From: Candidatus Wolfebacteria bacterium GW2011_GWB1_47_1 | GTDB taxonomy: Bacteria > Patescibacteriota > Minisyncoccia > UBA6257 > UBA9933 | NCBI GenBank assembly: GCA_001029635.1 | Contig: CP011209.1 | Location: forward strand, 80,983 to 144,982 | DNA: 64,000 nt | Direction of reading: 5' to 3' | Shown here: positions 1,409 through 16,924 of the stretch, in pieces | Layout: each line of letters opens with the position of its first letter | How positions within the stretch are numbered: position 1 is the first letter of the stretch | Position numbers and translations under genes: made by a program | The notes under the pieces: model-generated | Database searches by the model: none | What the model was told of the DNA's origin: nothing | The model's input: only the letters and a program-made list of their open reading frames with translations

Positions 1409-1433
1409 GTCATTCCCGCGAAGGCGGGAATCC
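1409..1433. repeat. REP-like hairpin GTCATTCCCGCGAAGGCGGGAATCC (member of dispersed GTCATTCC...GGAAT family)
   Basis: Perfect palindrome ATTCCCGC-GAAG-GCGGGAAT with conserved flanks. Near-identical copy at 3476-3499; covarying copies at 47114, 35053, 26594 (inverted) and 21605. Confidence 0.6.
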
Positions 1434-1572
1434 ACTTCCTTTTGCCGTATATGGATTCCTATGTTCGCGAGAATAATCGAAGACCCACTTGAATAATGGT
1501 CTAATTGTACGCCACGAATAGGCCGATGACAAGAAAAAAAGTCCCCGGATTGCTCCGAGGACTACAGTCCTC

Positions 1573-2886: not shown

Positions 2887-2959
2887 AGTGAACCTCCCCG
2901 TTCCCTTGATGGTAATGCGATGAAATTGACAAAAAGTTTCTGCCCCTAGCGTCGCCCAT

Positions 2960-3469
2960 TTAAAAAATTTTGTCAATGTCGGGGAAGTGGGACGTTCGCT
3001 TTGTGTCCAATATCGCCTTTCGAACATTCTTCCATAAAATCCGATGTTCAGGAATAATATCTTTCGGCATCGTTTTAAAAAACGTCCCCTGTGCCGGACG
3101 ATCGCTTTTACTTAAAAACACCAATGATACACCACTCCCCCGAGGGCTGTTCCAATAATTGAGCGGGAATAGGAATTTGTATTTTTTGATATGCAACCCT
3201 ACTTCGGCAATAGCCATTTTCTTGATCCGCTCATCAACCGTTTCCCGATACCGCATCAACCCTCCCGGAAAATGCCACCCTTTCCACCATTGGTCTTCAC
3301 GCCAAGTAAGGAGTATCTCTCCTTTTTCATTCATAACAACAAGCTCACACGCAATAAACGGTACTACATCACACAGGGCGTCAAATACCGGCTGAGGCAA
3401 TCCGCTATGAGGATCTTCTATTTTCCCCAAGAGCGTAGCGAGCTGTTCTGTTTCTTTTTTGGTAAGCAT
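2960..3469 (-). CDS. Nudix hydrolase, GDP-mannose mannosyl hydrolase (NudD/Gmm/WcaH)-like
   Basis: 169 aa; KGWHFPGGLMRYRETVDERIKKMAIAEVGL resembles the atypical Nudix box of E. coli Gmm ([30 protein letters not shown]). Paralog at 12549-13046. Confidence 0.65.
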   Translation of the reverse strand: MLTKKETEQLATLLGKIEDPHSGLPQPVFDALCDVVPFIACELVVMNEKGEILLTWREDQWWKGWHFPGGLMRYRETVDERIKKMAIAEVGLHIKKYKFLFPLNYWNSPRGSGVSLVFLSKSDRPAQGTFFKTMPKDIIPEHRILWKNVRKAILDTKRTSHFPDIDKIF

Positions 3470-3475
3470 GTATCT

Positions 3476-3499
3476 GTCATTCCCGCGAAGGCGGGAGTC
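3476..3499. repeat. REP-like hairpin GTCATTCCCGCGAAGGCGGGAGTC
   Basis: Second copy of the 1409-1433 element, between two minus-strand genes. Confidence 0.6.
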
Positions 3500-3541
3500 T
3501 ATTGCTGATCTAATTTTTATTCTGATAGTTTAATTATAAAC

Positions 3542-3569
3542 AAAAAAAATGAGGGGGTCGAACCCCCTC
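3542..3569 (-). terminator. rho-independent terminator after methyltransferase gene
   Basis: GAGGGGG-TCGAA-CCCCCTC perfect 7-bp GC stem followed by an 8-nt T-run on the minus strand, 30 nt downstream of the stop at 3600. Confidence 0.65.
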
Positions 3570-3599
3570 ATCGGATTGTATATTTTGCGCGATCAATTC

Positions 3600-4763
3600 C
3601 TATGCGAACTCGATTTTGTTGTCCCGGAGTACTGCAACGTCCGCTCCGAAATTCAACTGTCTCAACGTTTTCAGTACTTCGTCAGGATAGAGCCCGGGGA
3701 CCATGACGATCACAAGATCGACCGGATTTTCCTCCAAGTGGCTCGGTGCCACGATATTAAAATGTGTGACCGGAGTGAATCTTCCCTGTTTGAACTTTGC
3801 GGAATCAATCACATAGGCAATATCGGTGATATTACTCAGTGCCAGCAGCGTTAATGTTCTATGACCCGCCCCCCACACCGCTATCTTCTGGTTATTTGTC
3901 ACGTAGGTTGCGACGAGACGCTGCAGCTCGTTAATGAGCAAATGCATCGGACCGCGGCGACCAAAAAGGTTTAGAGCCTCTCGCTTTTTCACCGTTGCCG
4001 CAATGTCATTCTCTTCGTTGATGATCCGGCATTCCAGTACGTCAAACCCGTTTGCCTCAAAAGCATGGGTCAACGTCCTCGTCGTGAAGTACGAAATGTG
4101 ATCGGGAACGAATTCGTAGAGACATTTCGTCTTAAGCAGGTATTCCAGGTTGGGGACAGTTACAAACCCCACGGCATTGGCCGCCAAGTTGCCGGATATG
4201 TTTTCGATAATCCTACCAGGATCGGGCAAATGCTCGAGATAGTTCAGACAGATGAACGCATCGAAGGGGCCTCCGGCTATCGCGCCCCTGTCTCCGATGT
4301 ACCGCTGGACCATCGTCCTACCCAAAGCCGCTCCCCTCTCTACCGATTTTCCGGACGCTTCCACCCCTGTTGCTTGCATGCCGACTTCTTCCAAAACATC
4401 CAGCATCGCACCTTCGCCACAGCCGATATCCACTACCTTTTTACCTGCAAGTCCGAATCGCTCGACCAACTCTTGCATCTGGCCCAGCCGGGACAATCTT
4501 GCCTTCTCGGATAATGAAGCGGCGGTAATAACCTCCTTGAAGTAGTCCACTGGCTGCATCCCATGCTGCACCAGTCCGCAATGCGAACACTGCTTGATCG
4601 CCAGGGTAATGCCGGTGTCCTCGGCAAATTCATCGATTTCCGGATAATACTGGGCAGCTTTTGGCATCCCTTTCAAAAGAAGAATCTGACCTGCGGGTAG
4701 TGCGTGATTGCACAAATGACAGCGGTTGTTCGAATCCATGGTTCTCTCCTCCTCTGTATTCAA
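3600..4763 (-). CDS. SAM-dependent sugar C-methyltransferase (TylCIII/NovU-like: N-terminal Zn-ribbon + class I MTase + C-methyltransferase C-terminal domain)
   Basis: 387 aa; CHLCNH...CSHCG zinc-ribbon, a VVDIGCGEGAML SAM-binding motif, and a long C-terminal domain. Architecture is typical of NDP-hexose C-methyltransferases. RBS GAGGAGGAGAGAA upstream. Confidence 0.6.
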   Translation of the reverse strand: MNTEEERTMDSNNRCHLCNHALPAGQILLLKGMPKAAQYYPEIDEFAEDTGITLAIKQCSHCGLVQHGMQPVDYFKEVITAASLSEKARLSRLGQMQELVERFGLAGKKVVDIGCGEGAMLDVLEEVGMQATGVEASGKSVERGAALGRTMVQRYIGDRGAIAGGPFDAFICLNYLEHLPDPGRIIENISGNLAANAVGFVTVPNLEYLLKTKCLYEFVPDHISYFTTRTLTHAFEANGFDVLECRIINEENDIAATVKKREALNLFGRRGPMHLLINELQRLVATYVTNNQKIAVWGAGHRTLTLLALSNITDIAYVIDSAKFKQGRFTPVTHFNIVAPSHLEENPVDLVIVMVPGLYPDEVLKTLRQLNFGADVAVLRDNKIEFA

Positions 4764-4858
4764 TTTTTTAGCGCATAACCCAAAATATATGTGGATATAT
4801 GCACTTTTATATACTGACTATCTTATACTGCTTCAAACAATACGTGTCAAGAAAATAC

Positions 4859-5818
4859 TTACGCTTCCTCCTTTTTAAAATACTTACTGCGTAATTCTTT
4901 TGCGTAATTCAAATACAGGTCCTGTCCTACCGCGTCGACATCCAGATTGTCCTGAATGGTCCTGTAATATGCATACAGCTCGGCGATTGCTGCTTTAGAT
5001 GAGGTGAATTTAAAATCACCCATCTCAGAAAGAAGTTTTTTATTGTCCCCGGAATATTCCACCCCGATCCCCGGATTCAATACCTGTATTTCAGTGGTGT
5101 TACCACTAAGCTCATTAATGATGTTTGCGATCGTCACCAGGTCGATCGATTCCGTCGGCGTAACATTGAATATCTTTTCTTTCGAATCGTTATGTATGAA
5201 ATGCCCGATGATCTTATATAAGTCATTAATATAGAGATAATCGTAAACGACATTTTGATTGATCACGATAGGCATCCCCAATAGGCTTTTCACGATCGCA
5301 TTAGCTATGAATTTATACCGATAATCCTCGTATTTTCCGAATATGCCAAATAGCCTGAGGCACACGAGCTGCTCGCTGTTTATATCGCGGACGTACTTGG
5401 AGATTAGGTATTTTGAGTAGCTATGGCTGTCCTCAGGAATATGCTCGTCAAAATATTCCTCTGCCATTTTTTTGTGCCAATGACTCCTTCCATATTCGGA
5501 ACCGCTCCCTAGATTTATCAGCTTTATCGCCGGCGTCATATGCTTCTGCAAATTGAAGAACATGCGCAAATTATGTTCGCACACCTCCAGAGGATAGGTC
5601 TTACCGGATAGGGATGTCGTCGCGGAATGAATGATGACGTCTATATTATTTTTCTTTAAAAATACCCCGACAGCATCGTCGTCGATCAAATTCAACTCAT
5701 TTCTCAATGGAGCAAATACAACATAATTATCCTGCGAAAACAACTCTGTCAAATTGCGCCCGACAAAACCCCTCGCGCCGGTCACTAGGATATGTATAGT
5801 TTTGTTGTCCTTATGCAT
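4859..5818 (-). CDS. NAD(P)-dependent epimerase/dehydratase-family (SDR) sugar nucleotide reductase/epimerase
   Basis: 319 aa; N-terminal Rossmann ILVTGARGFVGRNL. The gene is visibly AT-richer than its neighbours and has no SD. Confidence 0.6.
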   Translation of the reverse strand: MHKDNKTIHILVTGARGFVGRNLTELFSQDNYVVFAPLRNELNLIDDDAVGVFLKKNNIDVIIHSATTSLSGKTYPLEVCEHNLRMFFNLQKHMTPAIKLINLGSGSEYGRSHWHKKMAEEYFDEHIPEDSHSYSKYLISKYVRDINSEQLVCLRLFGIFGKYEDYRYKFIANAIVKSLLGMPIVINQNVVYDYLYINDLYKIIGHFIHNDSKEKIFNVTPTESIDLVTIANIINELSGNTTEIQVLNPGIGVEYSGDNKKLLSEMGDFKFTSSKAAIAELYAYYRTIQDNLDVDAVGQDLYLNYAKELRSKYFKKEEA

Positions 5819-5904
5819 TGATTCAGGATTGTAGGAAAATTATTGCACGCATGACGATACTACTTACAATATTGTCTAATGTAGACCATGCCCATATAAA
5901 AATC

Positions 5905-5940
5905 AAATAAAAAAAGGCCCGGGCATTACGCACCGGGCCT
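5905..5940 (-). terminator. rho-independent terminator after aldolase gene
   Basis: GGCCCGG-loop-CCGGGCC stem followed by a T7 run on the minus strand, just downstream of the stop at 5959. Confidence 0.6.
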
Positions 5941-5958
5941 TCGCAATCCATCGCTAGA

Positions 5959-6741
5959 CTACTGTAATCGCTTCTCAAGCATCTCGATCCTCTTCTCGTC
6001 CTCTGCCTTGACGCGAGAGTAGTACCGACGCTTGCTTTTGAGCCACAGGAGCTCGAATTCGACTGCCTTCAGGATCGCGGCATCGCCGTATTTCCAGGAA
6101 CTGGCCGGGAACACAACCTTGCGCGTCTCGAACTTGTCCACAAGCCCCTCCTGCTCTAACCGCTGTATAACGGGGATTGCTTCCGTGGAAATACCTCCAC
6201 CAAGGCCGGTTTTCAGACCGACCTTCTTCGCCTTTTCCATCGTCCCTTTGCAGATGTCATACACCTCCCCCGAGGTATTAATGACATCGCGACTCAGGCC
6301 CATCGACCCGACAAGGTCGACACGCCCAAGCGTAACTCCGCTCAACCTGGATACATCCGGCAACGCAAGCATCTCATCGAGATTGCGGTATGCCGTAATC
6401 GTTTCCATGTTGAAGGCGAACTCGATGTCACTTGCGTTATCTTCCGCGATCATGTCGCGGATGAGTATCAGAAATTTCGACAAAGCAAACGGCGTTTCCG
6501 CCATAGGGGCGATCAACCCCTTCACGCCGAGACTCAATGCGTTGTACACATCGGTCACCGCCTCAACGCCGCCGATCTTCAGGATGATCGGCAGGCCAAC
6601 GGCCCCCGTAACATCCTTAAGCCGCATCATTTCTTCTATACGGCTTCCTTCGGCCTCGAATTCGGCTTTAATTTCGAATACACCGAAGTCATTTTTCAGC
6701 GACTTCAGCACCTCGATCATCTCGCGCTCTAATACGTTCAT
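5959..6741 (-). CDS. HpcH/HpaI aldolase / citrate-lyase beta-like family (TIM-barrel, pyruvate/2-keto-acid C-C lyase)
   Basis: 260 aa; METITAYRNLDEMLALPDVSRLSGVTLGRVDLVGSMG matches the conserved VDxxxIGxxDLsxsxG region of HpcH/CitE enzymes. RBS AAAGGAGG precedes the ATG. Confidence 0.5.
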   Translation of the reverse strand: MNVLEREMIEVLKSLKNDFGVFEIKAEFEAEGSRIEEMMRLKDVTGAVGLPIILKIGGVEAVTDVYNALSLGVKGLIAPMAETPFALSKFLILIRDMIAEDNASDIEFAFNMETITAYRNLDEMLALPDVSRLSGVTLGRVDLVGSMGLSRDVINTSGEVYDICKGTMEKAKKVGLKTGLGGGISTEAIPVIQRLEQEGLVDKFETRKVVFPASSWKYGDAAILKAVEFELLWLKSKRRYYSRVKAEDEKRIEMLEKRLQ

Positions 6742-6783
6742 CGGTCTACCTCCTTTTCCTTGAGTGATGTCTGGGATCTACGA

Positions 6784-7833
6784 TCACCAGTTGATGTCTT
6801 TCCAGCTTGCGGGATACTGCTTGGACTTCTCTATTTGCGGCAGGATCTTCTGATAAAACTCGGAGTCCCGGTTACCGCAGAGGCAACTCTGCTTGCAATC
6901 GTACGAGAACCACTGCATCGCCAGTCCGCGTTTGACGATCGTCTCAAGATCTTCTTCGAAGATATTCCCGAGACTGATCGGAATCCACGGGCAAGGCAAT
7001 ACGTCGCCGTATGCCGTGATTGAGAAGTGCTTTTTGAGACACAGGCAACCGAACTCGTGGCCATTGTTGACCGACAGATGCGTAGACGCATTATATATAT
7101 CGGTCAACGACTGGATGTACTGCAGATCCTTGGTATCCAGGATCTCATCCTTGGAATCCTCGAACGCGCCGGTCGCCTTCGCATAGATCATGCTGACGTG
7201 CTGATTGAACTGTTTAACGAATTCCAGCTGCTCGATCAGCTCGCCCGACCCGACGAGACTCTTCGTGACTACGATGTTGATGATGACGCCCAAGCCATGC
7301 TTCCTGCACAACTCCAGGGCATCGATGCATTTTTGCCACGATCCTTCCACACCCCTGAATGCGGTATGGTTAGCTTCCAGGCCGTCGATGCTCAGGTGGA
7401 TCCGGTCGACGCCGATGTCGACCAGCCACTTGATCGTTGCTTCATCCAGTCGGGACCCGTTCGTATCCATGCTGATCACAAACCGTTCCGGCCCGATCGC
7501 ATCGACGATGTCCTTGAGGTTGGGGAAGATCAACGGCTCTCCGCCGGATATGCAGATGCTCGCCAGGCCCATTGCATCTGCCTGATCAGCAATTCGCTCG
7601 ATGTCGGCGATAGCCAGAGACCTTCCGCCCCTTTGCTTAAACCGCTCGATGGCGCAATGCTTGCATTTGAAGTTGCACCGGTAATCGCACTGCAACTGGA
7701 TCAGGGCAACGCTTTCCTTGTTCGCAATCTTCTCCGGATGCCTGATGATCTTTGCGTATGCAAGCGGCTTCCGCTCCTTCAATTCACCCCGTGTCTTTAT
7801 TTCCCGTTCCGTCTGTCCATGCTGGTTAGCCAT
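6784..7833 (-). CDS. radical SAM protein with C-terminal Cys-rich (SPASM/twitch-like) auxiliary-cluster region
   Basis: 349 aa; CNFKCKHC = CX3CX2C motif, GGEPL. C-terminal cysteines (CLCLKKH...CPWIP...CKQSCLCG). RBS AGGGAGGT. Tightly coupled to the HAD gene. Confidence 0.7.
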   Translation of the reverse strand: MANQHGQTEREIKTRGELKERKPLAYAKIIRHPEKIANKESVALIQLQCDYRCNFKCKHCAIERFKQRGGRSLAIADIERIADQADAMGLASICISGGEPLIFPNLKDIVDAIGPERFVISMDTNGSRLDEATIKWLVDIGVDRIHLSIDGLEANHTAFRGVEGSWQKCIDALELCRKHGLGVIINIVVTKSLVGSGELIEQLEFVKQFNQHVSMIYAKATGAFEDSKDEILDTKDLQYIQSLTDIYNASTHLSVNNGHEFGCLCLKKHFSITAYGDVLPCPWIPISLGNIFEEDLETIVKRGLAMQWFSYDCKQSCLCGNRDSEFYQKILPQIEKSKQYPASWKDINW

Positions 7834-7837
7834 TTGT

Positions 7838-8599
7838 CTACCTCCCTTTCTTCAGTAATGAGATTATCTCGTTGAGTGCTCTTGCCTTCATATTCGAAAA
7901 ATCCGAAAAGTTGCCGCCAGGATCAAACAGTATGCTTTGACAGTTGAAGTTGTTGGCCATCCTAATGTCGCTTTCGGGCATGTCCCCTACGACGCAAATT
8001 CTCTCCGGCGAAAGCCCGTGCTCTCTGCATAGCAGTTCGAGCATGTACGTATTGGGCTTTCCGACGTGAACATCTGGAGCATGACCCGTTGCGTTGACGA
8101 TTGCGGCAACCAAAGCGCCGCAACCCGGCAATCTTCGATTATTCTCAATCGGATACGAAGAATCGCCATTTGCGACTATTAGCTTGGCTCCTCCATCGAT
8201 CGCGTCCAGCGCCATTGCTATTTTTTGATAGCTGAATGCTGGGTCGATTCCTACGACCACGGCGGATACGCCCGGATCTTCCTTGATGACAATTTCATTA
8301 GACATCAGCTCTCTCCGCAGATCATTGGTGCCGATTAAGTAAATGGGTCCGATCTCTTCCTCTACTAGATAATGAGAAATGCCACGAGCAATGCAATACG
8401 TATTCCCGCTGTGTGCCGGAAAACCAAGGTTGTTCAACTTGTCGACGATCTGCTTCCGCATCTTCCCGGAATTATTCGTCAGGTAGAATATTCGATACCC
8501 CTCCGCTTCAAGAGCGGCAATGGTTTCGATTGCCCCTTCGACGACTTTTTCACCGAGATACAGAGTGCCGTCCAAATCAAAAACAATGCTATCGATCAC
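7838..8599 (-). CDS. HAD-superfamily hydrolase, subfamily IIA (NagD-like sugar-phosphate phosphatase)
   Basis: 253 aa; FDLDGTLY (motif I), GKP, VGD(M) motifs. GTG start preceded by GGGAGGTGG. Confidence 0.7.
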   Translation of the reverse strand: MIDSIVFDLDGTLYLGEKVVEGAIETIAALEAEGYRIFYLTNNSGKMRKQIVDKLNNLGFPAHSGNTYCIARGISHYLVEEEIGPIYLIGTNDLRRELMSNEIVIKEDPGVSAVVVGIDPAFSYQKIAMALDAIDGGAKLIVANGDSSYPIENNRRLPGCGALVAAIVNATGHAPDVHVGKPNTYMLELLCREHGLSPERICVVGDMPESDIRMANNFNCQSILFDPGGNFSDFSNMKARALNEIISLLKKGR

Positions 8600-8724
8600 T
8601 TTACCACCTCCCTATTTTTCTAGATTATAAAAGGCCTTTTGTACTGAAATCGGTATACAACAATTATAGGTTTAAAGCAAGTATTTTACCTAAAAATATC
8701 TATGCCCACACAACCACTGCATTT

Positions 8725-8758
8725 TAAAAAAAGAGCCCCGTAAAGTATAGGGACTCTT
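8725..8758 (-). terminator. probable rho-independent terminator after TPP-enzyme gene
   Basis: Imperfect AAGAGCCCC...GGGACTCTT hairpin followed by T7 on the minus strand. Confidence 0.45.
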
Positions 8759-8766
8759 AAGACAGA

Positions 8767-10566
8767 TCATTCGGGATCGTCAGCGACGATTATCATATTG
8801 GCACCGAATTCATTCCGCGGAAGTAACGGGCTCATATCTTCCAGCGGATTTGATATCATGCGACCGTCTGACTCCTTCCTCGATGCCAACCGTGGAGCAA
8901 AACCATAGTCGGCATCCAGAATAACTTCGCACAACGCCCCTCCCTTGCTCGACAGGACATTGATAATGCCTTGTCTCATATGCACGGTCGAATCTATCCT
9001 GAAATAGTTTAGACCGTACAGATCCGCAAGCTTTGCATTGTCCGGGAAGGAGACACCACAATCCTCGTCGCACCCGATGAAATTGCCCTCGAAGAATCCA
9101 GCTTGGGTCATTCTGATCGAGTGATACCCTTGATTGTTTAGGATAAATATCTTTATCGGCAGATCGTAATGCTTGATAACCTGCAGTTCCTGAAGATTCA
9201 TCTGAATGCTACCGTCCCCTGCGAGGCAGATAACATCCCGATTACCCGCAAAAGCGGCGCCGATGGCGGCAGGTAGGTCGTACCCCATTGCCGCACAACC
9301 TGAGTTCCAGAAAATGCGCTGCCCTAGCTTAACAATACCCGCATGAAATAAACCGACACATGCCGTTCCATTCCCGGCGACTACGATGGCATTTTCATCC
9401 AGTGCGCCCGTCAGCTCCTCGATAAAATGATAGGGATGTACGGACCATTCATTCGGCTTCTTGTACTCGTCTAGAACAACAGGGTACTGCTTCTTGCGCG
9501 CCTGACACCATTCCAGCCATGGTTTATCAACCTGAAAACCTTTGGGAAGATTACCGAGAAGCTTGGTGATAAAAACGTTGGCATCGGAATGAATCAGGAT
9601 GTCGCCTTTGACCGTCGGTTTGCGCAATTCAGCCTCGTCAATGTCGACGATAATCTTTTTTGCGCGGCTGGCGAATGAAGACCAGTTGTAACTTGCCTGC
9701 CTAATGTTATTTCTAGTGCCAAGAAAAACGACGAAATCGGAGTTTTGCAACGCGAAATTTCCCGCGCGACTCCCCAAGGTTCCTATCCTCCCGATAAAAT
9801 GGTTAGATTCGGAAGCGATCAGATCGAAGCCATTGAACGTCGAGACAACGGGGATATTGATCAGGTCGACCAGTCCCAGAAATTCCTTCTGAGCCTTCGC
9901 GATCCTGATACCGTGGCCGGCGACGAGCAAAGGCCGCTTGGCCTTTTGCAATTCATCGACAACCTGGGAGATTGTTTCGTCTTCCGGAGCGATCACGACG
10001 TGCTCCATGCACTCGCCTTGCAGATTCTGCTCCTCGATCAATGCGCCTTGCACATTCAGCGGGATGTCCAGCCATACCGGACCAGGCCTCCCTGAGGTGG
10101 CGATGCGGATGGCCTTTTCTAATTCCGCTCGTATCCTCGTAGGGTCGGCGACCATTGTTGCATACTTGGTCATCGGCTTGACGATGTCAACGATGTTGAT
10201 CTCCTGATCTCCGAGTTGACGCAATCCGATGTCCGAACAGGATGCGAGAGTAGTCTCGAATTTTACCTGACCGGATAAGTAGAGCACCGGGACGGAATCA
10301 AGCCACTGTCCCAAAACTCCCGTCAAGGCATTGGTCCCTCCAGGACCGGACGTGACGCTAACAACTGCCAGATTTCCCGATACACGGGAGTACCCTTCGG
10401 CGGCGATCGCAGAAGCCTGCTCGTGATGGTTGCAGATGTATTTGATACGCCGTTCGTTCTTCAAGGCGTCATTCAAATGCATCGCCCCTCCGCCCGTTAT
10501 GACAAACACGTGCTCAACTCCATATTCGGCCAGATACTTAAAAATATAGTCAGCTACTCTCATCAT
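8767..10566 (-). CDS. thiamine-diphosphate-dependent enzyme, acetolactate synthase large-subunit-like (YerE-type two-carbon branch-forming candidate)
   Basis: 599 aa; N-terminal Pyr domain; central domain; C-terminal TPP motif GDGSIQMNLQELQ...NNQGY. Confidence 0.8.
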   Translation of the reverse strand: MMRVADYIFKYLAEYGVEHVFVITGGGAMHLNDALKNERRIKYICNHHEQASAIAAEGYSRVSGNLAVVSVTSGPGGTNALTGVLGQWLDSVPVLYLSGQVKFETTLASCSDIGLRQLGDQEINIVDIVKPMTKYATMVADPTRIRAELEKAIRIATSGRPGPVWLDIPLNVQGALIEEQNLQGECMEHVVIAPEDETISQVVDELQKAKRPLLVAGHGIRIAKAQKEFLGLVDLINIPVVSTFNGFDLIASESNHFIGRIGTLGSRAGNFALQNSDFVVFLGTRNNIRQASYNWSSFASRAKKIIVDIDEAELRKPTVKGDILIHSDANVFITKLLGNLPKGFQVDKPWLEWCQARKKQYPVVLDEYKKPNEWSVHPYHFIEELTGALDENAIVVAGNGTACVGLFHAGIVKLGQRIFWNSGCAAMGYDLPAAIGAAFAGNRDVICLAGDGSIQMNLQELQVIKHYDLPIKIFILNNQGYHSIRMTQAGFFEGNFIGCDEDCGVSFPDNAKLADLYGLNYFRIDSTVHMRQGIINVLSSKGGALCEVILDADYGFAPRLASRKESDGRMISNPLEDMSPLLPRNEFGANMIIVADDPE

Positions 10567-10723
10567 CCCATCCTCCTTTTAGCTTTCGCCTAATGACAAT
10601 CTTGTTATTTTTAGTAATGATTCTGATTCAGCAATACCATAGACTACGGTTTAAAGCAAGGATTTGCCTTAATCAAAATACGGAAGACCATATAAAAAAG
10701 AACGTTTAAATAACGAATGATTT

Positions 10724-10752
10724 AAAAAAGAGGGGCGTATTTCGCCCCCTCT
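10724..10752 (-). terminator. rho-independent terminator after B12-radical SAM gene
   Basis: GAGGGGCG-loop-CGCCCCCTC stem followed by a T-run on the minus strand. Confidence 0.6.
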
Positions 10753-10753
10753 G

Positions 10754-12406
10754 TTAAATCAGCTCATATATGCCGAATGTACTCGCATACCGTTGCCACG
10801 AGTGGTCCCGCTGTACTATCTGCTTTGCGATGCCCATATAACGACTTGCCCGTTCCACGTCGCCAAGTTTTCCATAACACTTCGACGCATAGTAATAGGC
10901 GAGCGCATGGTCGGCTCGTACCCGTATCGTGTTTTCAAACCCCTTCAGAGCAGTGGCGTAATTTCCCAATCGCAAGTCGTTATTCTCAACGAAATTCAAC
11001 TCGAGATTAAGTAAGTACACCTTTTCCTGTATCCATTCCGGAGTGAACTCGTCGGTCTCGATAACCGCCCGCTTAAAATCACTCCCAATGTGACTGCCCT
11101 TCAAATAGTTCTTGTCGACGCAGATGTCGTACATCTCGCTTCCCACAAGAGGAGCTGCCGTGTAAATACAAAACCACGAAACATCGATGCTCCTTAAAAA
11201 GGATCGAGTATCCTCGATGTCCTGTTTCGTTTCCCCGGGAAGTCCGATGAGGATGTTCGCGTCCGTATTGATTCCCAGTTTGCGGCAATCCTCAATAACG
11301 CGTTTTATCATCGCCGTATTGATCGGTTTATGCATCACCTCCTTCAAGACCCTGTCGCTTCCCGATTCCATAGCCAACACAAGCTCATCAAGCCCGGCGC
11401 TTTTTATCGCCTCGAGCATTTCTTGATCAAGTGCGTACAAGGCCAATCCGCTGTTGAAGAAGATCTTTATCTTCAACTCCCTCGCAATCTGGATTATCTG
11501 CAAGGCCCGCTTCCGATTGATCATGAAACTGTCATCCTGGAATCCGATTGTCTTGGCTCCATATTCTTTTTGAAGCCGGGTAATATCTTCCTTGACCCGA
11601 TCCACGGTGTGATAGCGCATCTTCCGTCCGTGCACCTTATGCGATGCGCAGAAACAGCACAGATGGGGGCATCCTCGTGATGTGGCGACATGAAAGATCC
11701 TTTTTTTATCCGGATCGAAAGAGGAATAGGCATTAACCGTAGGGCTTAATCCATAATCCTCAACTCTCAGGAGCTTGTAATCATAGAACGGTATTTCATC
11801 AAGATCGGAAATGAAATCGTATTGAAACTGGAATCCCGCCTCGCTTTTTCCTCGGGTGATCCACGACGGATGGGAATTCAAAAATCCCCTTTTGTCGACT
11901 GCGTTCACTAATCCCAGCAACGGCCTTTCGCCTTCGCCATAACACAACGCGTCGAAACACGAAGTGACGGCAAAGATCTCCCGGTGCATGATGGTGGGGA
12001 CCCCGCCTCCGGCAATCATCATCGCATCCGGAAATGCGCGCCGCGCCACCTCGGAGATGGCGACCATGTTATGGTACGCGGGAGTGAACAGGGTCGATAT
12101 CCCGATGATGGTCGGATCGAAATCCAACCATTCCTTTCCAGAAAGAACCTCAAGGAACATTTCCGAAAAAGATTTGTAGATGAAATTATCGGTCTTATTC
12201 AGAATAACATTGAAGTCGAGGAGTTTTACCTCGACCGAAGAATGTTTTTTTAAATAAGCACTGAGAGACAAGAGTCCGATGGGCATATCCGTGACTACGC
12301 TGCCGTAATCCCCCGATTTCTTGGAAACAATCCTTTCGCTCGGGAGCGGGTTCACGTAATTTTCATAGCTCACGTACGGTGGCACTACAAATAGAATTCG
12401 TTCCAT
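10754..12406 (-). CDS. B12-binding (class B) radical SAM enzyme, probable C-methyltransferase, with C-terminal TPR-like tail
   Basis: 550 aa; N-terminal cobalamin-binding-like domain; CPHLCCFC (CX3CX2C) radical SAM core. Confidence 0.7.
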   Translation of the reverse strand: MERILFVVPPYVSYENYVNPLPSERIVSKKSGDYGSVVTDMPIGLLSLSAYLKKHSSVEVKLLDFNVILNKTDNFIYKSFSEMFLEVLSGKEWLDFDPTIIGISTLFTPAYHNMVAISEVARRAFPDAMMIAGGGVPTIMHREIFAVTSCFDALCYGEGERPLLGLVNAVDKRGFLNSHPSWITRGKSEAGFQFQYDFISDLDEIPFYDYKLLRVEDYGLSPTVNAYSSFDPDKKRIFHVATSRGCPHLCCFCASHKVHGRKMRYHTVDRVKEDITRLQKEYGAKTIGFQDDSFMINRKRALQIIQIARELKIKIFFNSGLALYALDQEMLEAIKSAGLDELVLAMESGSDRVLKEVMHKPINTAMIKRVIEDCRKLGINTDANILIGLPGETKQDIEDTRSFLRSIDVSWFCIYTAAPLVGSEMYDICVDKNYLKGSHIGSDFKRAVIETDEFTPEWIQEKVYLLNLELNFVENNDLRLGNYATALKGFENTIRVRADHALAYYYASKCYGKLGDVERASRYMGIAKQIVQRDHSWQRYASTFGIYELI

Positions 12407-12548
12407 CTCGCATCTCCTTTTCTATTGGTTTGGTAATGAACTCCTATCTGCCCATAAAGTACAACGACTTCTGATTTAATACAAGACCCAGAGGCAATAT
12501 GGGCAACTTTATTAAATAGCGAATATTTTAATTAAAAAGTTTTACAGC

Positions 12549-13046
12549 TTATAAATATTGCCTGTAAATAGCGTCATGAAATTTCAATAAATTGTCGGGG
12601 CAAGTTTCATGCCACTGCAAGTAGCCAGGATCGGTTTCTTTCATCCCTTTATTTTCCGGAGCAAAATCAGGCGGTAACGAACATTTATACAAGATGGAGA
12701 TAAAATGACCCCTGACATCGCGCTCCTCGTTTATTATTTGATTTATTGCCAGCGGGTTGGGGTCAAAGTCAACTTCCGTGCCTATTTCAGATTTCGCAAC
12801 CTTTTTTATTCTTGTCTCGAATGTTTCTTTAAACCTGATAATTCCGCCTGGTATATGCCATCCTTTTCCGGCGTACTGATCATCTCTCCATGCCAGGAGC
12901 GTACGACCTTTTTCGTCCTGTATTAAAAGATCGACATTGATAAGTGGAGTTGTCTCGCTGATATAATAAAAAATTTCGTCCGGCAAGCCATAGGACGGAT
13001 TCGGAACATGCTTTTTGAGAATTTCAATAGCATCTTTAATTTCCAT
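12549..13046 (-). CDS. Nudix hydrolase, GDP-mannose mannosyl hydrolase (NudD/Gmm)-like, paralog of 2960-3469
   Basis: 165 aa; GKGWHIPGGIIRFKETFETRIKKVAKSEIG. Confidence 0.65.
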   Translation of the reverse strand: MEIKDAIEILKKHVPNPSYGLPDEIFYYISETTPLINVDLLIQDEKGRTLLAWRDDQYAGKGWHIPGGIIRFKETFETRIKKVAKSEIGTEVDFDPNPLAINQIINEERDVRGHFISILYKCSLPPDFAPENKGMKETDPGYLQWHETCPDNLLKFHDAIYRQYL

Positions 13047-13130
13047 ATAAATAACTTACGCCCCCCAACAAGGCATGTCAATTTTATATTGTAGGCGATA
13101 AACCTAGCACGAGTTCATATTAAAGGTATA

Positions 13131-13159
13131 TAAAAAAACCCGCAGCAAAGCCGCGGGGG
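13131..13159 (-). terminator. probable rho-independent terminator after dehydratase gene
   Basis: CCCGCAGC-AAA-GCCGCGGG hairpin followed by T7 on the minus strand. Confidence 0.5.
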
Positions 13160-13175
13160 ATGAGGTAGAGATGTA

Positions 13176-14147
13176 TTACCGTTCCATCTTGAAGTACTTG
13201 CGATACCACATAGACGTATACTCGATGCCCTCCTCGAACGTGTATTGCGATCTCCATCCGAGGATACTAGTCGCCTTCTCGAAGCTCAGGCTTTGAGAGG
13301 GGATCTCGTTCTTCTGTGTGCTGCGGATCACATACTCACACTTTCGCTTCAACGTCTTCGCGATCGCATCGATCAACTCGATAACGGTGAAGTTGTACCC
13401 GGTGCTGAAATTGAACGCTTCGCCTTTGGAGATATCCATCTGCTCCATAAGGGCAACGTACCCGTCGGCGACGTCCTTTACGTAGACATAGTCACGGACG
13501 AACTGTCCGTCGCTGCGAAGCTCGAGCGGCTCGCAACACCAGGTAGCCCGCATGATGCCGGGCACGATACGGTTGAGGTTGAGATCCCCGGGGCCGTAGA
13601 TGTTCCCAAACCGACTGACTGCAACGGGCAGGCCATAGGTCTTCGCGTAGGTCCGCGCGATCAGGTCGGTGCATGACTTGGAGACATCATACGGATGATC
13701 TCCTGCCATCGGCGCATCCTCGGTCGCATTGTCGCACTTCTTTCCGTACGCCTTGTCGCTCGAAGCAACAACGACGCCTTTGACCATCGTCGAACGCCGA
13801 GCTGCTTCCAAGACATTCACCGTCCCCATGATGTTGGTTTCCAACGTCTCACGTGGATTGACGAATGCCGTGTTGACGATCGGCTGTGCGGCGACGTGAA
13901 AGATGTGTTCGATTTCATACCGGGTGACCACGTCAAGTACGCGTTGCGCATCCTTGATGTCGCACGTTGCGCTGACGACATGATCACCAAGCTTCTTGCC
14001 AGCGAAGTAGGACCACGGATTCGATGCTCGGCACGTGATGTGCACATGCGCACCCATGGCGATCAACTTCTCGGTCAGATGTCCTCCGACAAGTCCTGTC
14101 GCTCCGGTGACCAGAACGTTTCGGCCTCTTAAGTCGTGCTTTGTCAC
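13176..14147 (-). CDS. CDP-glucose 4,6-dehydratase-like NAD-dependent epimerase/dehydratase (RfbG/DdhB-like)
   Basis: ORF track gives 13176..14300. The track's start lies upstream of a terminator hairpin at 14243-14260. A GTG start at 14147-14145 (VTKHDLRGRNVLVTGATGLVGGHL) is preceded by AGGAGG with 6-nt spacing. Rossmann GATG motif; SxxxxxYxxxK-type catalytic region (YDVSK). Confidence 0.7.
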   Translation of the reverse strand: MTKHDLRGRNVLVTGATGLVGGHLTEKLIAMGAHVHITCRASNPWSYFAGKKLGDHVVSATCDIKDAQRVLDVVTRYEIEHIFHVAAQPIVNTAFVNPRETLETNIMGTVNVLEAARRSTMVKGVVVASSDKAYGKKCDNATEDAPMAGDHPYDVSKSCTDLIARTYAKTYGLPVAVSRFGNIYGPGDLNLNRIVPGIMRATWCCEPLELRSDGQFVRDYVYVKDVADGYVALMEQMDISKGEAFNFSTGYNFTVIELIDAIAKTLKRKCEYVIRSTQKNEIPSQSLSFEKATSILGWRSQYTFEEGIEYTSMWYRKYFKMER

Positions 14148-14235
14148 ATGCCACCTCCTGTATGCGATTGTCTTAATGCATGGATATGCTATTAGTGTTC
14201 TGACTTTTGTATAGTGATTTTTAATGAAAAAGTCA

Positions 14236-14262
14236 ACAAAAAGAGGGGCCGAAGCCCCTCTC
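14236..14262 (-). terminator. rho-independent terminator after rfbF
   Basis: GAGGGGC-CGAA-GCCCCTC perfect stem followed by a T-run on the minus strand. Confidence 0.6.
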
Positions 14263-14266
14263 ACGT

Positions 14267-15049
14267 TTACCAGACCTTCCAAAACGGATCGCACTCCCAC
14301 AGCTCATTCAGCTCAAGAACTTCCTTTTGAGTGTCCATGGGTTTCCACCTTCCCCCATGGGAAAAGACAGACAGCTCTCCGCGCTCCGCCAGCGGGATGA
14401 ACACGTGTTCGATCATCGAATCGGGGTCAATCAGGTCGAGCGCCTCGTTCTTGAACACCATGAACCCGCCGTTTACGTAGTCGGCGTGTTCGCCGCCTAT
14501 AAAGTCTTTGACCTTCGCCTGGTGAAAATCCCTAGCCTTACCGGTACTGTCATCGACGGAGATCAGGCCGAATCGCTCTTCCTTGTGTACGCCGGTGATC
14601 GTGCCGATCGTACCCTGCTTTTGATGGAACTCGACCAGCTTGATTACGTTGACATTGCCAACCCCGTCACCGTAAGTAAGCATAAAATCTTCACCACCGA
14701 GATGGCGCCGTAAGCGCCTGACGCGCTCGCCCGTAAGAGAATTCAGACCGGTTTCTACAAATGTGACTTTGAAGTCGTCGCAATCGTTGTTGTGAAACGT
14801 CAGCTCGGCGGTCTTCGTGTCGAGCGTGAAGTCGTTCAGGAATGTCCTCCAGTGCAGGAAGTATTCCTTGATCATATCGCCACGATACCCTAATGCGAGG
14901 ATGAATTCGTTATATCCGTAGTGGGCGTAGATCTTCATGATGTGCCACAAGATCGGCTTACCGCCGACGAGCACCAACGGCTTCGGCTTAAACTCCGTTT
15001 CCTCCTTCATGCGAGTGCCTTGCCCTCCGCACAGAATCACCGTTTTCAT
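14267..15049 (-). CDS. rfbF: glucose-1-phosphate cytidylyltransferase
   Basis: 260 aa; MKTVILCGGQGTRMKEETEFKPKPLVLVGGKPILWHIMKIY closely resembles Salmonella/Yersinia RfbF (DdhA). Confidence 0.85.
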   Translation of the reverse strand: MKTVILCGGQGTRMKEETEFKPKPLVLVGGKPILWHIMKIYAHYGYNEFILALGYRGDMIKEYFLHWRTFLNDFTLDTKTAELTFHNNDCDDFKVTFVETGLNSLTGERVRRLRRHLGGEDFMLTYGDGVGNVNVIKLVEFHQKQGTIGTITGVHKEERFGLISVDDSTGKARDFHQAKVKDFIGGEHADYVNGGFMVFKNEALDLIDPDSMIEHVFIPLAERGELSVFSHGGRWKPMDTQKEVLELNELWECDPFWKVW

Positions 15050-15176
15050 ATACCCCCCCTTATTCGGTTGTATCCGCTGTATGTACAGCTAGTTCTAGTT
15101 ACTGTATAAAAATTTTCTCATTAAAAGTCAAACGGTTCTTTGTTGTCCTGCTGCACTTGTTAACGATTAACCAGCC

Positions 15177-15260
15177 CAAACACCACCACCCCGAACGCAA
15201 CTCCGACATTCAAAGATTCCTTTTTTGCCACGCATTGGGATTTTCAAAAATAGTGTGCTT
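15177..15260. repeat. duplicated remnant of the 3' end of the SpoU methyltransferase gene (52 bp identical to 16424-16475, ~70% over a further 30 bp)
   Basis: Direct sequence match CCCAAACACCACCACCCCGAACGCAACTCCGACATTCAAAGATTCCTTTTT. The two copies flank the Fic gene. Confidence 0.65.
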
Positions 15261-15261
15261 A

Positions 15262-16317
15262 TTAATTTACCGCATAATTTCTCGCAGCAAAATCATATTG
15301 GGCAATAAAAATACTCTTGAACGGCGTCAGAATATTTAATTCATAGAATACAAGAACAGCCTCTCGATATTCCTGCTCGTTCACGCTGCGGTAAGAAAGT
15401 GGCGCCAAATCATATGCCAGCAAGATAGCATCAGCCAAAAGTCTACCAGTTCGCTTGTTTCCATCTTCGAATGGCTGTATATACGAAATGCCAATAACCG
15501 CCAAGAGTGCTTTTCCGTAAGGAGAATCACATTGCACTATTTTTTGAGTAAGTGCGTGTAATGCTTCAGATATCTGAAATTCATTGTCAAGAGGTCTATA
15601 AATAGAGCCAGTAACGCCAACTGCTCTTTTTCTTAAATTAAAACCCACATTAAGATCTTTTACTAAGATCTTATGCAGCTCCTCAATATCATTTTTTGAA
15701 AGACTCTTAAATCGATCAGCATTCTTGTGGACATATTCAAAGGCGCTCTTATGATTCAAGATCATCTGAGTTTCATCTTTTGTCTTCCCCGGTGCTGCAA
15801 TGTGTCGGAGAATTAACATCTCAGTATCTAGGAGACTATACGTATTTCCTTCAATCTTTGACGACTTCCAAGAAAGCTCGATAATCAGCCGCTCTAGCTC
15901 CTTTCTTCGTATGCTTTCTGGCAGATCATTGATCCTCCGCCGATATTCATGAGTCGCTTCATCAAGAACCCGCTCTTCTGTCTCATTAAAAAGAACCGTG
16001 GGCATTTCAACAAATAGATCAAAGTTATATCGGGTCATCCCATATCGATTATCGGGGTCAACTGAACAATAAGCAGAAGCGTCTATATCTGCAAAAACTC
16101 TCCCGGTCGTACTTATTGCATACGCCGTGGATCGTCCCGACCCAGAAACCCTTAACACATTCAACTTGACCAATTCGGACAAGATTCTCTTTACAGTCAC
16201 GAGAGAAATTTGCTCGCCAGATTCCTTTAAATCGGAGTATATCTGAGATGACGAAAAAGTCTCCCCTTTTAGTAAGGTTGTCACTATTAGTTGTTGTTTT
16301 TGATTCAATTGGGTCAT
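15262..16317 (-). CDS. Fic-family protein (AMPylator/adenylyltransferase-like) with N-terminal winged-HTH
   Basis: 351 aa; canonical Fic motif HPFEDGNKRTGR. Confidence 0.8.
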   Translation of the reverse strand: MTQLNQKQQLIVTTLLKGETFSSSQIYSDLKESGEQISLVTVKRILSELVKLNVLRVSGSGRSTAYAISTTGRVFADIDASAYCSVDPDNRYGMTRYNFDLFVEMPTVLFNETEERVLDEATHEYRRRINDLPESIRRKELERLIIELSWKSSKIEGNTYSLLDTEMLILRHIAAPGKTKDETQMILNHKSAFEYVHKNADRFKSLSKNDIEELHKILVKDLNVGFNLRKRAVGVTGSIYRPLDNEFQISEALHALTQKIVQCDSPYGKALLAVIGISYIQPFEDGNKRTGRLLADAILLAYDLAPLSYRSVNEQEYREAVLVFYELNILTPFKSIFIAQYDFAARNYAVN

Positions 16318-16336
16318 ATTCGTATCATTTATATAT

Positions 16337-16365
16337 AATTATCGTATCATTATGATACGATAATT
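16337..16365. promoter_or_regulatory. perfect 14+1+14 bp palindrome AATTATCGTATCAT-T-ATGATACGATAATT immediately upstream of fic start (candidate autoregulatory operator)
   Basis: Seen directly in sequence; additional half-site-like CGTATCAT / TGATACGA copies flank it. Confidence 0.55.
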
Positions 16366-16401
16366 ACAATACTTTGATACGAAAACACGCCCTGGTCTTA
16401 T

Positions 16402-16887
16402 TCACTTGGCCCTATTCAGAATCCCAAACACCACCACCCCGAACGCAACTCCGACATTCAAAGATTCCTTTTTCCCGTGCATCGGAATTTCCAAAATATG
16501 GTCTGTGCGGGCCAGGATCCCCTTTGGCAGTCCTTCTACCTCATTGCCCATTATCAGGGCTAATTTGGCCGTTTTTGGGGCGTTAAAGCCTATATACGGC
16601 ACCGAATCAGCAGATTGTTCGACTGCGCAAATGGTATACCCCTCCTTTTTTAATCTCCCTATGAGGCGAACAGCCGATTTTGAATATTCCCAAGGAATAT
16701 AATCCTCCGCACCAAGCGATACCTTGGAAATATCTTGACGCTTACGCCCAAATTGGTCGACGGGTTGTGGCGTGATGCCACACAAAAACACCTTCTTTAC
16801 ACCCGCCGCATCGGCAGTCCGGAATATGGATCCGACATTATGCGTACTGCGAATGTCGGGCAAGATGACTACGATTTCCATTCGCAA
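16402..16887 (-). CDS. SpoU-family (SPOUT) RNA 2'-O-methyltransferase, TrmL/TrmH-like
   Basis: 161 aa; size and LCGITPQPVD...ALIMGNEVEGLP...NVGVAFGVVVF match minimal SpoU (TrmL-type) methyltransferases. Confidence 0.7.
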   Translation of the reverse strand: MRMEIVVILPDIRSTHNVGSIFRTADAAGVKKVFLCGITPQPVDQFGRKRQDISKVSLGAEDYIPWEYSKSAVRLIGRLKKEGYTICAVEQSADSVPYIGFNAPKTAKLALIMGNEVEGLPKGILARTDHILEIPMHGKKESLNVGVAFGVVVFGILNRAK

Positions 16888-16924
16888 AGTATATCATAAA
16901 AGACCCGCTTAAGCGGGTCTTTTA

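Follow-up and report, generated by a model that had tools for sequence, protein, structure and literature searches.

A predicted branched-deoxyhexose operon combining a YerE-like carboligase with two radical SAM enzymes in Candidatus Wolfebacteria

Five genes at positions 5959-12406 of a 64,000-nt stretch of the Candidatus Wolfebacteria bacterium GW2011_GWB1_47_1 genome (the window) encode a putative aldolase, two radical S-adenosylmethionine (SAM) enzymes, a phosphatase and a thiamine diphosphate (ThDP)-dependent enzyme, and raise the question of what such a combination could make. The first-pass annotation of this DNA had likened the set to Fom3 of fosfomycin biosynthesis and stated that it matches no standard deoxysugar route, while allowing for a branched higher-carbon sugar. 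Our analysis indicates, with good confidence, that the region is the centre of an operon for a nucleotide-activated, most likely cytidine diphosphate (CDP)-linked, 3,6-dideoxyhexose with a 4-C-acyl or hydroxyalkyl branch, made by a YerE-type route with radical tailoring. The branched higher-carbon sugar built by 2-keto-acid C-C chemistry is the best reading.

The five open reading frames (ORFs) were all present on the minus strand where they had been placed before, and the gene set was confirmed by these coordinates, by Pfam and NCBIfam and by a motif check, in which the catalytic motifs of the radical SAM, HAD and ThDP proteins were complete. They lie at the centre of a block of 12 co-directional minus-strand genes which, as the annotation had it, begins with a cytidylyltransferase gene, and the gene order of this sugar operon was unchanged in two independent assemblies (L089 and L090). 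Strong terminator-like hairpins with T-runs were found on the minus strand at 14262-14241, 13157-13139, 10749-10731, 3572-3548 and 1563-1540, and 27 such hairpins were observed in positions 1-17000 of the window against 15.2 +/- 3.5 expected. The blocks between the hairpins are RfbF; RfbG; Nudix A with the B12-binding radical SAM gene; the ThDP, phosphatase, SPASM radical SAM, aldolase, reductase and C-methyltransferase genes; and Nudix B with RfbH. An Rfam scan of the window detected two tRNAs only, and a cobalamin riboswitch was not found. The evidence supports the view that the five genes work together in a pathway for a cytidylyl-linked sugar.

The ThDP enzyme (8767-10566, minus strand) showed the three-domain architecture of acetolactate synthase (ALS), with TPP_enzyme_N, TPP_enzyme_M and TPP_enzyme_C all present in Pfam, HHEQ with the catalytic Glu at residues 46-49, and GDG-X26-NN from residue 450. 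Its best match in the PDB was JanthE (8rph; 383.7 bits, residues 2-588 aligned), followed by 5ahk (265.7 bits), which we take to be the structure of PpYerE, whereas the genuine acetohydroxyacid synthase (AHAS) entries all scored 233 bits or less. JanthE (Janthinobacterium sp. HH01, PDB 8RPH) and PpYerE are characterised ketone-accepting carboligases, and a structure of PpYerE is recorded in a published review. ALS was the top NCBIfam family by score, but its 351 bits fell below the equivalog cut-off of at least 538, and neither the phosphonopyruvate decarboxylase (Ppd) family nor Xsc was among the top 25 NCBIfam matches. None of the three identities considered earlier (ALS, Ppd or the sulfoacetaldehyde acetyltransferase Xsc) was retained, and the nearest relatives were the YerE-like JanthE and PpYerE. 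By sequence, the enzyme is nearer to these carboligases than to the acetohydroxyacid synthases, and it is predicted to join a 2-oxo acid to a ketone acceptor with decarboxylation. The ThDP gene shares its operon with RfbF, RfbG and RfbH, and this association was kept in related loci. The public name of the protein, 'acetolactate synthase' (carried by a cluster member from Candidatus Wolfebacteria GW2011_GWA2_47_9b), is probably wrong, and a YerE-like, sugar-branching carboligase is indicated instead.

The proposed source of the 2-oxo acid is the gene at 5959-6741 (minus strand), a putative and divergent class II (metal-dependent) aldolase with the HpcH/HpaI/CitE fold. Pfam HpcH_HpaI matched it weakly (27.5 bits), and sequence matches to solved structures were marginal. 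An AF2 model (pLDDT 90.9), built from the less diverse of two alignments (A3), was submitted to Foldseek, and the top matches were SbnG, HpaI, HpcH, SwHKA and YfaU (E values of 1e-5 to 1e-7 for these five) and CitE, with malyl-CoA lyase also found; no phosphoenolpyruvate (PEP) mutase or isocitrate lyase (ICL) was among the best 50 matches. As modelled, the fold is a TIM barrel of the HpcH/CitE family, which answers the choice between HpcH and PEP mutase/ICL posed by the first-pass annotation. The invariant residues E113 and D142 align with the YfaU motifs 'vqvE' and 'GpaDL', presumably those of the metal-binding Glu153 and Asp179. Formation of an alpha-keto acid is proposed for this enzyme, whose family has 4498 detectable relatives and 68-92% identity across phyla. 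As a separate observation, a gene resembling 3-dehydroquinate (DHQ) synthase, of the sugar phosphate cyclase family, and a short-chain dehydrogenase gene adjoin an HpcH-like aldolase gene in two loci without radical SAM genes (L086 3281-5069; L087 8183-9930); this arrangement may provide an alternative aldehyde supply or donor modification.

The phosphatase (7838-8599, minus strand) is a HAD-IIA protein with matches to Pfam Hydrolase_6, Hydrolase and Hydrolase_like, a score over the TIGR01460 (HAD-SF-IIA) cut-off, and the motifs DLDGT (DxDxT) and GDMPESD (GDx4D). The ThDP, HAD and HpcH genes are contiguous in seven loci (L028, L046, L091, L093, L111, L116 and L136), and in the Azonexus locus L070 a non-orthologous HAD_2-type phosphatase occupies the slot of the HAD gene. 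The phosphatase is a consistent partner of the aldolase, and the simplest reading, by analogy with the logic of Kdo-8-P and Neu5Ac-9-P, would be a phosphorylated aldehyde or aldol product. A coupled pair, in which a Nudix protein yields a sugar-1-phosphate that is then dephosphorylated by HAD, was also considered but is not a general rule, as HAD occurs without Nudix in L111, L116, L136 and L169; within the HpcH-type loci centred on the B12-binding enzyme, the two do co-vary. Since HAD is found without Nudix in the aldolase-centred loci, it belongs with the aldolase.

The remaining core genes point to a CDP-deoxysugar as the acceptor. The RfbF-like glucose-1-phosphate cytidylyltransferase (14267-15049, minus strand; Pfam NTP_transferase) had TIGR02623 as its best NCBIfam family (266.5 bits over the full length, below the cut-off of 300). 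The RfbG-like NDP-hexose 4,6-dehydratase (13176-14300, minus strand; Pfam GDP_Man_Dehyd and Epimerase) matched CDP-glucose 4,6-dehydratase as its top NCBIfam family with 196.8 bits (cut-off 278), the alignment starting from residue 58. Its true start is probably downstream of 14300, and the hairpin at 14262-14241 falls within the predicted N-terminal extension. RfbH, the E1 enzyme CDP-6-deoxy-L-threo-D-glycero-4-hexulose 3-dehydrase (1573-3027, minus strand), scored 656.7 bits with NCBIfam PRK15407, over the equivalog cut-off of 423. A CxCx7C Fe-S motif and a His replacing the pyridoxal phosphate (PLP)-binding lysine mark a genuine 3-dehydrase; CVCx7C was found here, and AHH stands where the PLP lysine would be. 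The true start of RfbH is probably at 2886, giving 437 aa, and the gene is called at 437 aa in other assemblies. An extended short-chain dehydrogenase/reductase (SDR), an NAD(P)-dependent reductase/epimerase (4859-5818, minus strand; Pfam Epimerase), has the motifs GARGFVG and YLISK and weak NCBIfam matches; it is a candidate for a YerF-like side-chain ketoreductase. Outside the core, a TylC3-like SAM-dependent NDP-hexose C-methyltransferase is encoded at 3600-4763 (minus strand; Pfam Methyltransf_23 and Methyltransf_14, the latter being the C-methyltransferase C-terminal domain).

Next, conservation of the linkage was followed from two independent anchors. With the B12-binding radical SAM enzyme (B12-rSAM) as the anchor, the window proteins were used as tblastn queries against 45 genome loci at species level, all of them with complete 10-kb flanks, and tblastn coordinates were used for high-GC loci, where simple ORF calls gave artefactual long or antisense ORFs. 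The ThDP gene was present in 41 of these loci, E1 in 32, and the 4,6-dehydratase and Nudix genes in 31 each. The aldolase served as the second anchor and led to 28 loci from metagenomes, each 11 kb or longer, which contained ThDP (24 loci), RfbF and RfbG (19 each), E1 (14), SDR (13) and HAD (6), and a B12-rSAM of the same family was seen in only one. The distance between a keto-acid synthase gene and the ThDP gene was less than 1 kb in 38 of 50, 14 of 18 and 26 of 32 loci, the synthase being the aldolase in the first two sets. Look-ups of single aldolase loci again showed CDP-sugar neighbours, and some loci also had GT2, GtrA and GT-C genes. Chance could not account for a co-occurrence that extends over more than 100 unrelated loci, and the adjacency is not fortuitous. 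Thus, from both anchors the aldolase and ThDP genes kept their CDP-sugar neighbours and were not found scattered in the unrelated contexts that the first-pass annotation had named as the opposing outcome.

The same comparison revealed a modular architecture. A compact seven-gene cassette without radical SAM genes, in the order RfbF-RfbG-ThDP-HAD-HpcH-SDR-RfbH, was found in the metagenome loci L111, L116 and L136, in all of which the SDR gene directly follows HpcH; the window operon can therefore be described as this core with additions, namely Nudix A with B12-rSAM, the SPASM radical SAM gene between HAD and HpcH, and the C-methyltransferase with Nudix B. The B12-rSAM, the SPASM enzyme, the C-methyltransferase and the two Nudix proteins are add-ons to the core route. 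The C-methyltransferase was present in 31 of the 45 B12-rSAM loci. Genes for an FkbM-type methyltransferase recur as another addition (15 of the 45 loci; for example, L047 222-1193 and L028 12941-13903) and are absent from the window. The keto-acid synthase is itself exchangeable: among the 45 B12-rSAM loci, HpcH was found in 12 and a NeuB-cupin fusion in 24, but never both. The identity of the ThDP protein to that of the window was 42-71% in loci with HpcH (at least 45% in all but one) and 44% or less in loci with NeuB, and this tracking of the synthase type fits donor-specific enzyme pairs. NeuB-cupin genes lie, for instance, at L001 4930-7058, L003 2616-4775 and L004 5979-7508, and are often followed by a gene for a 206-aa HAD-like protein with a DVDDV motif.

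The first of the two radical enzymes, B12-rSAM (10754-12406, minus strand), matched Pfam B12-binding (52 bits, above threshold) and Radical_SAM, carries the CX3CX2C motif as CPHLCCFC at residues 246-253, and has a C-terminal helical tail resembling tetratricopeptide repeats (TPR-like). Its family, whose members have about 548 aa, is tight, with 45-67% identity across Patescibacteria, Omnitrophota, Nitrospirota, Desulfobacterota, Elusimicrobia, Victivallales, Magnetococcales and cultured Proteobacteria. About 1000 relatives were detected. All NCBIfam families scored below their cut-offs: the P-methyltransferase family Sden_1168 (150 bits, cut-off 575), HpnJ (128), ApyD (117), BchE (114), PhpK (104) and AprD4 (82). 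Fom3 was not among the top 25 NCBIfam families, and no direct comparison with Fom3 was made. Foldseek placed AprD4 first (E 1.7e-16, TM 0.67), followed by CysS, OxsB, TsrM, TokK and MgmA; AprD4 was also the best solved relative by sequence (76-82 bits), the likeness covering the radical SAM core only. An N-terminal B12-binding Rossmann domain with a radical SAM core is the architecture of the class B (cobalamin-dependent) radical SAM methyltransferases, and it is shared by the non-methylating AprD4, OxsB, BchE and HpnJ. A methylase is our preferred, though tentative, reading of this enzyme, ahead of an AprD4-like dehydratase; other radical chemistry is a third possibility.

The second radical enzyme (6784-7833, minus strand; Pfam Radical_SAM and SPASM) carries CNFKCKHC (CX3CX2C) and C-terminal cysteine clusters, and no equivalog match or informative relative was found for it. 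Some SPASM radical SAM gene was present in 42 of the 45 B12-rSAM loci. Additional paralogues, either with a B12 domain or plain radical SAM proteins, with 26-29% identity to the B12-rSAM of the window, were observed in L028 (1280-2863 and 20929-21644), L001 (19172-21650), L091 (1149-2294) and L093 (5334-6353). Several radical tailoring steps per sugar seem likely. No paper was found that ties YerE-type clusters, CDP-ketosugars or flagellin glycosylation to radical SAM or B12 enzymes, in a search that did not cover the main survey.

The two Nudix-fold proteins, A (12549-13046, minus strand; Pfam NUDIX and NCBIfam PRK15434, with a degenerate Nudix box) and its paralogue B (2960-3469, minus strand; Pfam NUDIX and NCBIfam GDP-mannose mannosyl hydrolase), are 40% identical to each other. 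The best PDB matches of Nudix A were the GDP-mannose mannosyl hydrolases 2i8t, 2gt4 and 1rya (E 1.6e-7), although this match is weak, being confined to the N-terminal half (residues 23-92) with scores far under the family cut-off. The best relative of the two proteins, the GDP-mannose mannosyl hydrolase of E. coli, splits a nucleotide sugar into its nucleotide and free sugar. Nudix A lay within 300 bp of B12-rSAM in 19 of 46 loci, and Nudix genes were present in 19 of 24 NeuB-type loci compared with 5 of 12 HpcH-type loci. This enrichment suggests that the Nudix proteins may free an aldose for the condensing enzyme, in the manner of PseG or NeuC in nonulosonic acid pathways. It is equally possible, by analogy with Gmm in colanic acid clusters, that they would police the sugar-nucleotide pool.

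The destination of the sugar was approached through the flanking genes. The window starts within a gene for a Wzy_C-family membrane protein (1-1399, minus strand, cut by the window start; Pfam Wzy_C, the O-antigen ligase, polymerase and O-oligosaccharyltransferase family), and in the assemblies L089 and L090 (15300-20783) the full Wzy_C protein of 735-747 aa is followed by an HTH_17 gene, Wzx (Polysacc_synt) and two GT2 genes. As Wzy_C, Wzx and GT2 genes lie next to it, the sugar operon is part of a larger surface-glycan locus. The product may be a lipid-linked surface glycan, or it may enter O-linked protein glycosylation, since Wzy_C includes O-oligosaccharyltransferases. In ten proteobacterial loci (L042, L058, L059, L065, L067, L070, L071, L072, L074 and L083; about 12-21 kb in each), the genes after the cassette encode a multi-glycosyltransferase protein (about 1260 aa) and then flagellin, FlaG, FliD and FliS; the hosts were three species of Chromobacterium, Azonexus, Rhodoferax, Methylophilus, Neptuniibacter and relatives. 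In a Victivallales genome (L003/L015 15668-21650), the cassette adjoins flgFGAHIK. These proteobacterial and Victivallales sites are flagellin glycosylation islands.

These results can be set against a published pathway. For acyl-branched 3,6-dideoxyhexoses, a common scheme has been put forward, and in part demonstrated, by Steitz et al. (2022; PMC9306805). In this scheme, a pyruvate aldolase provides a functionalised 2-oxo acid, a YerE-like enzyme (ErwE, MMAR_2332 or MyGE) couples it to the C4 ketone of CDP-4-keto-3,6-dideoxyglucose, and a YerF-like enzyme reduces the ketone of the side chain; it was proposed for erwiniose, caryophyllose and gastriose. MMAR_2331 of M. marinum is of the aldolase/citrate-lyase family, and a putative R. 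palustris cluster has a SAM methyltransferase (PMC9306805). RfbF, RfbG, E1, the aldolase, the YerE-like enzyme, the SDR and the C-methyltransferase map one-to-one on this scheme, and the earlier statement that the genes fit no standard deoxysugar route was overstated, the combination of aldolase, YerE-like enzyme and reductase being the published one. In the pathway that we propose, RfbF, RfbG and RfbH would convert glucose-1-phosphate to CDP-4-keto-3,6-dideoxyglucose, while the HpcH-fold aldolase would condense pyruvate with an aldehyde to a 4-hydroxy-2-oxo acid and HAD-IIA would dephosphorylate either the precursor of the aldehyde or the product of the aldol reaction. The YerE-like enzyme would then decarboxylate the keto acid and transfer the resulting acyl anion to the ketone at C4 of the CDP-sugar, so that a tertiary alcohol and a carbon branch arise; like YerF, the SDR would reduce the side-chain ketone. 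The product may be diversified by the TylC3-like C-methyltransferase, the SPASM enzyme and B12-rSAM, B12-rSAM by methylating an unactivated carbon as a best guess or, alternatively, by an AprD4-like diol dehydration, and the Nudix proteins would release free sugar or police the CDP-sugar pool. The finished sugar would enter a Wzx/Wzy-type surface glycan in Wolfebacteria and flagellin glycosylation in Proteobacteria.

Other explanations were weighed against this pathway. The Fom3-like logic requires that B12-rSAM C-methylates a cytidylylated, non-sugar, phosphonate-like intermediate, with the TIM barrel as a PEP mutase and the ThDP enzyme as a phosphonopyruvate decarboxylase. A B12-rSAM and a cytidylyltransferase do share one operon, and the P-methyltransferase families Sden_1168 and PhpK are among the best NCBIfam matches of the former, far under their cut-offs; however, the barrel has the HpcH/CitE fold with no PEP mutase or ICL among the best 50 structural matches listed, the ThDP enzyme has a central domain, aligns end-to-end with JanthE and lacks Ppd or Xsc among its top 25 families, the nucleotidyltransferase belongs to the sugar-1-phosphate type and has a 4,6-dehydratase and E1 as neighbours, and deoxysugar genes are always the partners across 125 related loci. 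The Fom3 proposal is thus highly improbable and was abandoned. Chance adjacency of primary metabolism, that is, a branched-chain ALS, an aromatic-catabolism HpcH and unrelated radical SAM genes, could appeal to the public name and to ALS as the top-scoring family, but the score is far below the equivalog cut-off, YerE-like structures outscore every AHAS, no small ALS subunit or ilv genes lie nearby, and aldolase, ThDP and CDP-sugar genes stand together in dozens of unrelated loci, so that this explanation can practically be set aside. It is also very unlikely that the product of the aldolase or NeuB is the end product, transferred as such as a Kdo-, Pse- or Leg-like ulosonic acid with the ThDP enzyme unrelated to branching. 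The replacement of the aldolase by a NeuB-type synthase in 24 of 45 loci, many of them in flagellin islands, where nonulosonic acids are typical, would fit this idea, but the genes listed for L001, L003, L004 and the window include no CMP-ulosonic acid synthetase of the NeuA/KdsB type, the keto-acid synthase lies next to the ThDP gene in nearly every case, and E1 and the 4,6-dehydratase would be idle.

Two further possibilities accept the same enzymes and change what they do. The first keeps the pathway but takes B12-rSAM as an AprD4-like radical 1,2-diol dehydratase, which with an SDR would deoxygenate the sugar or its polyol side chain, possibly without cobalamin. The sugar diol dehydratase AprD4 is the best solved relative by both sequence and fold, an SDR gene directly follows B12-rSAM in the Azonexus-type loci L070, L062 and L056, resembling the AprD4/AprD3 pair, and the known sugars of the class are multiply deoxygenated; yet the similarity is confined to the radical SAM core, the N-terminal domain is a genuine B12-binding domain in Pfam, methyltransferase and cyclase families outscore AprD4 in NCBIfam, and closer families lack solved structures, which biases the PDB ranking. 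Such a dehydratase is possible, if somewhat doubtful. The other possibility is a C-C-linked 'double sugar' of about 14 carbons, in which a Nudix protein, with or without HAD, would free a deoxyhexose from its CDP-sugar, HpcH or NeuB-cupin would extend it with pyruvate or PEP to an acid of the 3-deoxy-non-2-ulosonic type, the ThDP enzyme would join this to C4 of a second CDP-ketosugar, and B12-rSAM and the SPASM enzyme would methylate, deoxygenate or cyclise the product. We regard this as unlikely.

The YerE-type route to a branched 3,6-dideoxyhexose remains our preferred reading, and several points weigh against it. The data show which genes are present, their folds and motifs, the conservation of their linkage and the modular design; we infer all of the chemistry, including which aldehyde is used and what the two radical SAM enzymes act on and catalyse, and no member of these exact families is known to have been characterised biochemically. 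The aldolase is very divergent, with 13-18% identity to solved HpcH members, and the catalytic Arg, which polarises the carbonyl of pyruvate (R70 in HpaI, R74 in YfaU), appears, in a weakly aligned segment, to be replaced by the invariant Lys K55 in 'ILKIGG'. In the yersiniose A pathway, the E3 reductase is DdhD. An AscD-type E3 was not found in the operon, in the window or in the neighbouring ORFs of the loci examined; a scan of all window ORFs for the plant-type 2Fe-2S motif found none, and the unknown ORFs beside RfbH in L028, L046 and L047 were assigned by Pfam to GT2, FkbM and similar families. The gene set for CDP-4-keto-3,6-dideoxyglucose therefore contains E1 but no E3 of the Fer2/FNR type, and E1 would need a housekeeping electron donor, or else the acceptor sugar would be non-canonical. 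As RfbF and RfbG scored below their equivalog cut-offs, the CDP nucleotide is deduced mainly from E1. The SDR is at most a candidate counterpart of YerF. Finally, the radical SAM chemistry appears unconstrained, and the best solved relative of B12-rSAM, by sequence and by model, is the dehydratase AprD4, not a methylase.

Other features of the window were also recorded. The sugar operon is immediately preceded by genes for a Fic-domain protein and a SpoU methylase (15262-16887, minus strand), and the order SpoU-(HTH)-Fic-RfbF was also seen in Candidatus Wolfebacteria RIFOXYD1 (L004/L005 1183-2454), there with the NeuB-type cassette. These are followed by a gene for a 1352-aa protein with three Lamin Tail Domains (16925-20983, minus strand), a 217-aa ORF without a family match (20956-21609) and an IS200/Y1-transposase-like ORF (21978-22691, minus strand). 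A low-GC stretch at 36000-40000 (0.39-0.41 compared with about 0.47 elsewhere) contains a tyrosine integrase gene next to a short, possibly truncated major facilitator superfamily (MFS) ORF (37272-38087 and 36553-37242, both on the minus strand), and may be an integrated element. The N-terminal half of a transketolase is encoded as a separate 290-aa ORF at 35121-35993 (minus strand), that is, as a split transketolase.

The assignment replaces a misleading 'acetolactate synthase' label in a genome of about 1 Mb, from the candidate phyla radiation (CPR), with a specific and testable function, and extends the YerE-type branched-sugar route to a large and phylogenetically broad set of loci. The design appears modular, with a seven-gene core, radical SAM, Nudix and C-methyltransferase add-ons, and exchangeable HpcH and NeuB synthases, and it places a conserved, uncharacterised B12-rSAM family on nucleotide-sugar or glycan chemistry, where few such enzymes are known. 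Little is known of the surface glycans of CPR bacteria, which probably play a part in the episymbiotic lifestyle; as the cassette occurs in the cultured and tractable Chromobacterium, Azonexus and Rhodoferax, its product and radical chemistry could be read back onto the unculturable CPR. The double sugar, if true, would be a new class of higher-carbon sugar on CPR surfaces and proteobacterial flagellins.

Compared with known systems, the operon shares most with the branched-sugar pathways. Among solved structures, JanthE and PpYerE come closest to the ThDP enzyme and align over its full length, although JanthE has a CDG motif in place of the canonical GDG found here, and likeness to JanthE gives no product prediction because its physiological substrates are not established. 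Yersiniose A biosynthesis in Yersinia pseudotuberculosis (DdhA-D, YerE and YerF; PMC9306805) likewise uses CDP-glucose, a 4,6-dehydratase, E1, an ALS-like ThDP enzyme acting at C4 and a reductase, but YerE takes pyruvate and needs no aldolase, whereas the window operon has one, together with radical SAM, Nudix, HAD and C-methyltransferase genes that are not described for yersiniose A. The erwiniose, caryophyllose and gastriose clusters (ErwE-ErwI-ErwF, MMAR_2331-2332 and MyGE-MygI-MygF) and the R. palustris 'ropiose' cluster follow the same logic of aldolase, YerE-like enzyme and reductase; the window differs in its very divergent HpcH-fold aldolase, likened to MMAR_2331 by family description, in a HAD that is integral to the module, in its two additional radical SAM and two Nudix genes, and in its CPR host.

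The likeness to the other systems is partial. Fom3, the C-methylase of cytidylyl-hydroxyethylphosphonate in fosfomycin biosynthesis, has the same combination of B12-binding and radical SAM domains and a cytidylyltransferase in its cluster, but the window has no phosphonate genes, and its cytidylyltransferase is of the sugar-1-phosphate kind and has deoxysugar neighbours. AprD4, which with AprD3 carries out the C3' deoxygenation of apramycin, acts on a sugar, and an SDR partner is adjacent in some B12-rSAM loci as well; the B12-rSAM of the window differs in its TPR-like C-terminal tail, in a B12-binding domain above the Pfam threshold, and in a sequence likeness limited to the core. The pseudaminic, legionaminic and sialic acid pathways share with the sister loci a NeuB-type synthase, an NDP-sugar hydrolase, to which the Nudix proteins resembling GDP-mannose hydrolase would correspond, and neighbouring flagellin genes, but no CMP-activating enzyme was seen in the gene lists of the sister loci, their NeuB is fused to a cupin, and the keto acid is apparently used by the adjacent ThDP enzyme. 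In summary, the core belongs to the YerE-type pathway class, which is already known, whereas its conserved extension by radical SAM, Nudix and C-methyltransferase genes, the interchangeable HpcH and NeuB synthases, and the flagellin context distinguish it as a variant.

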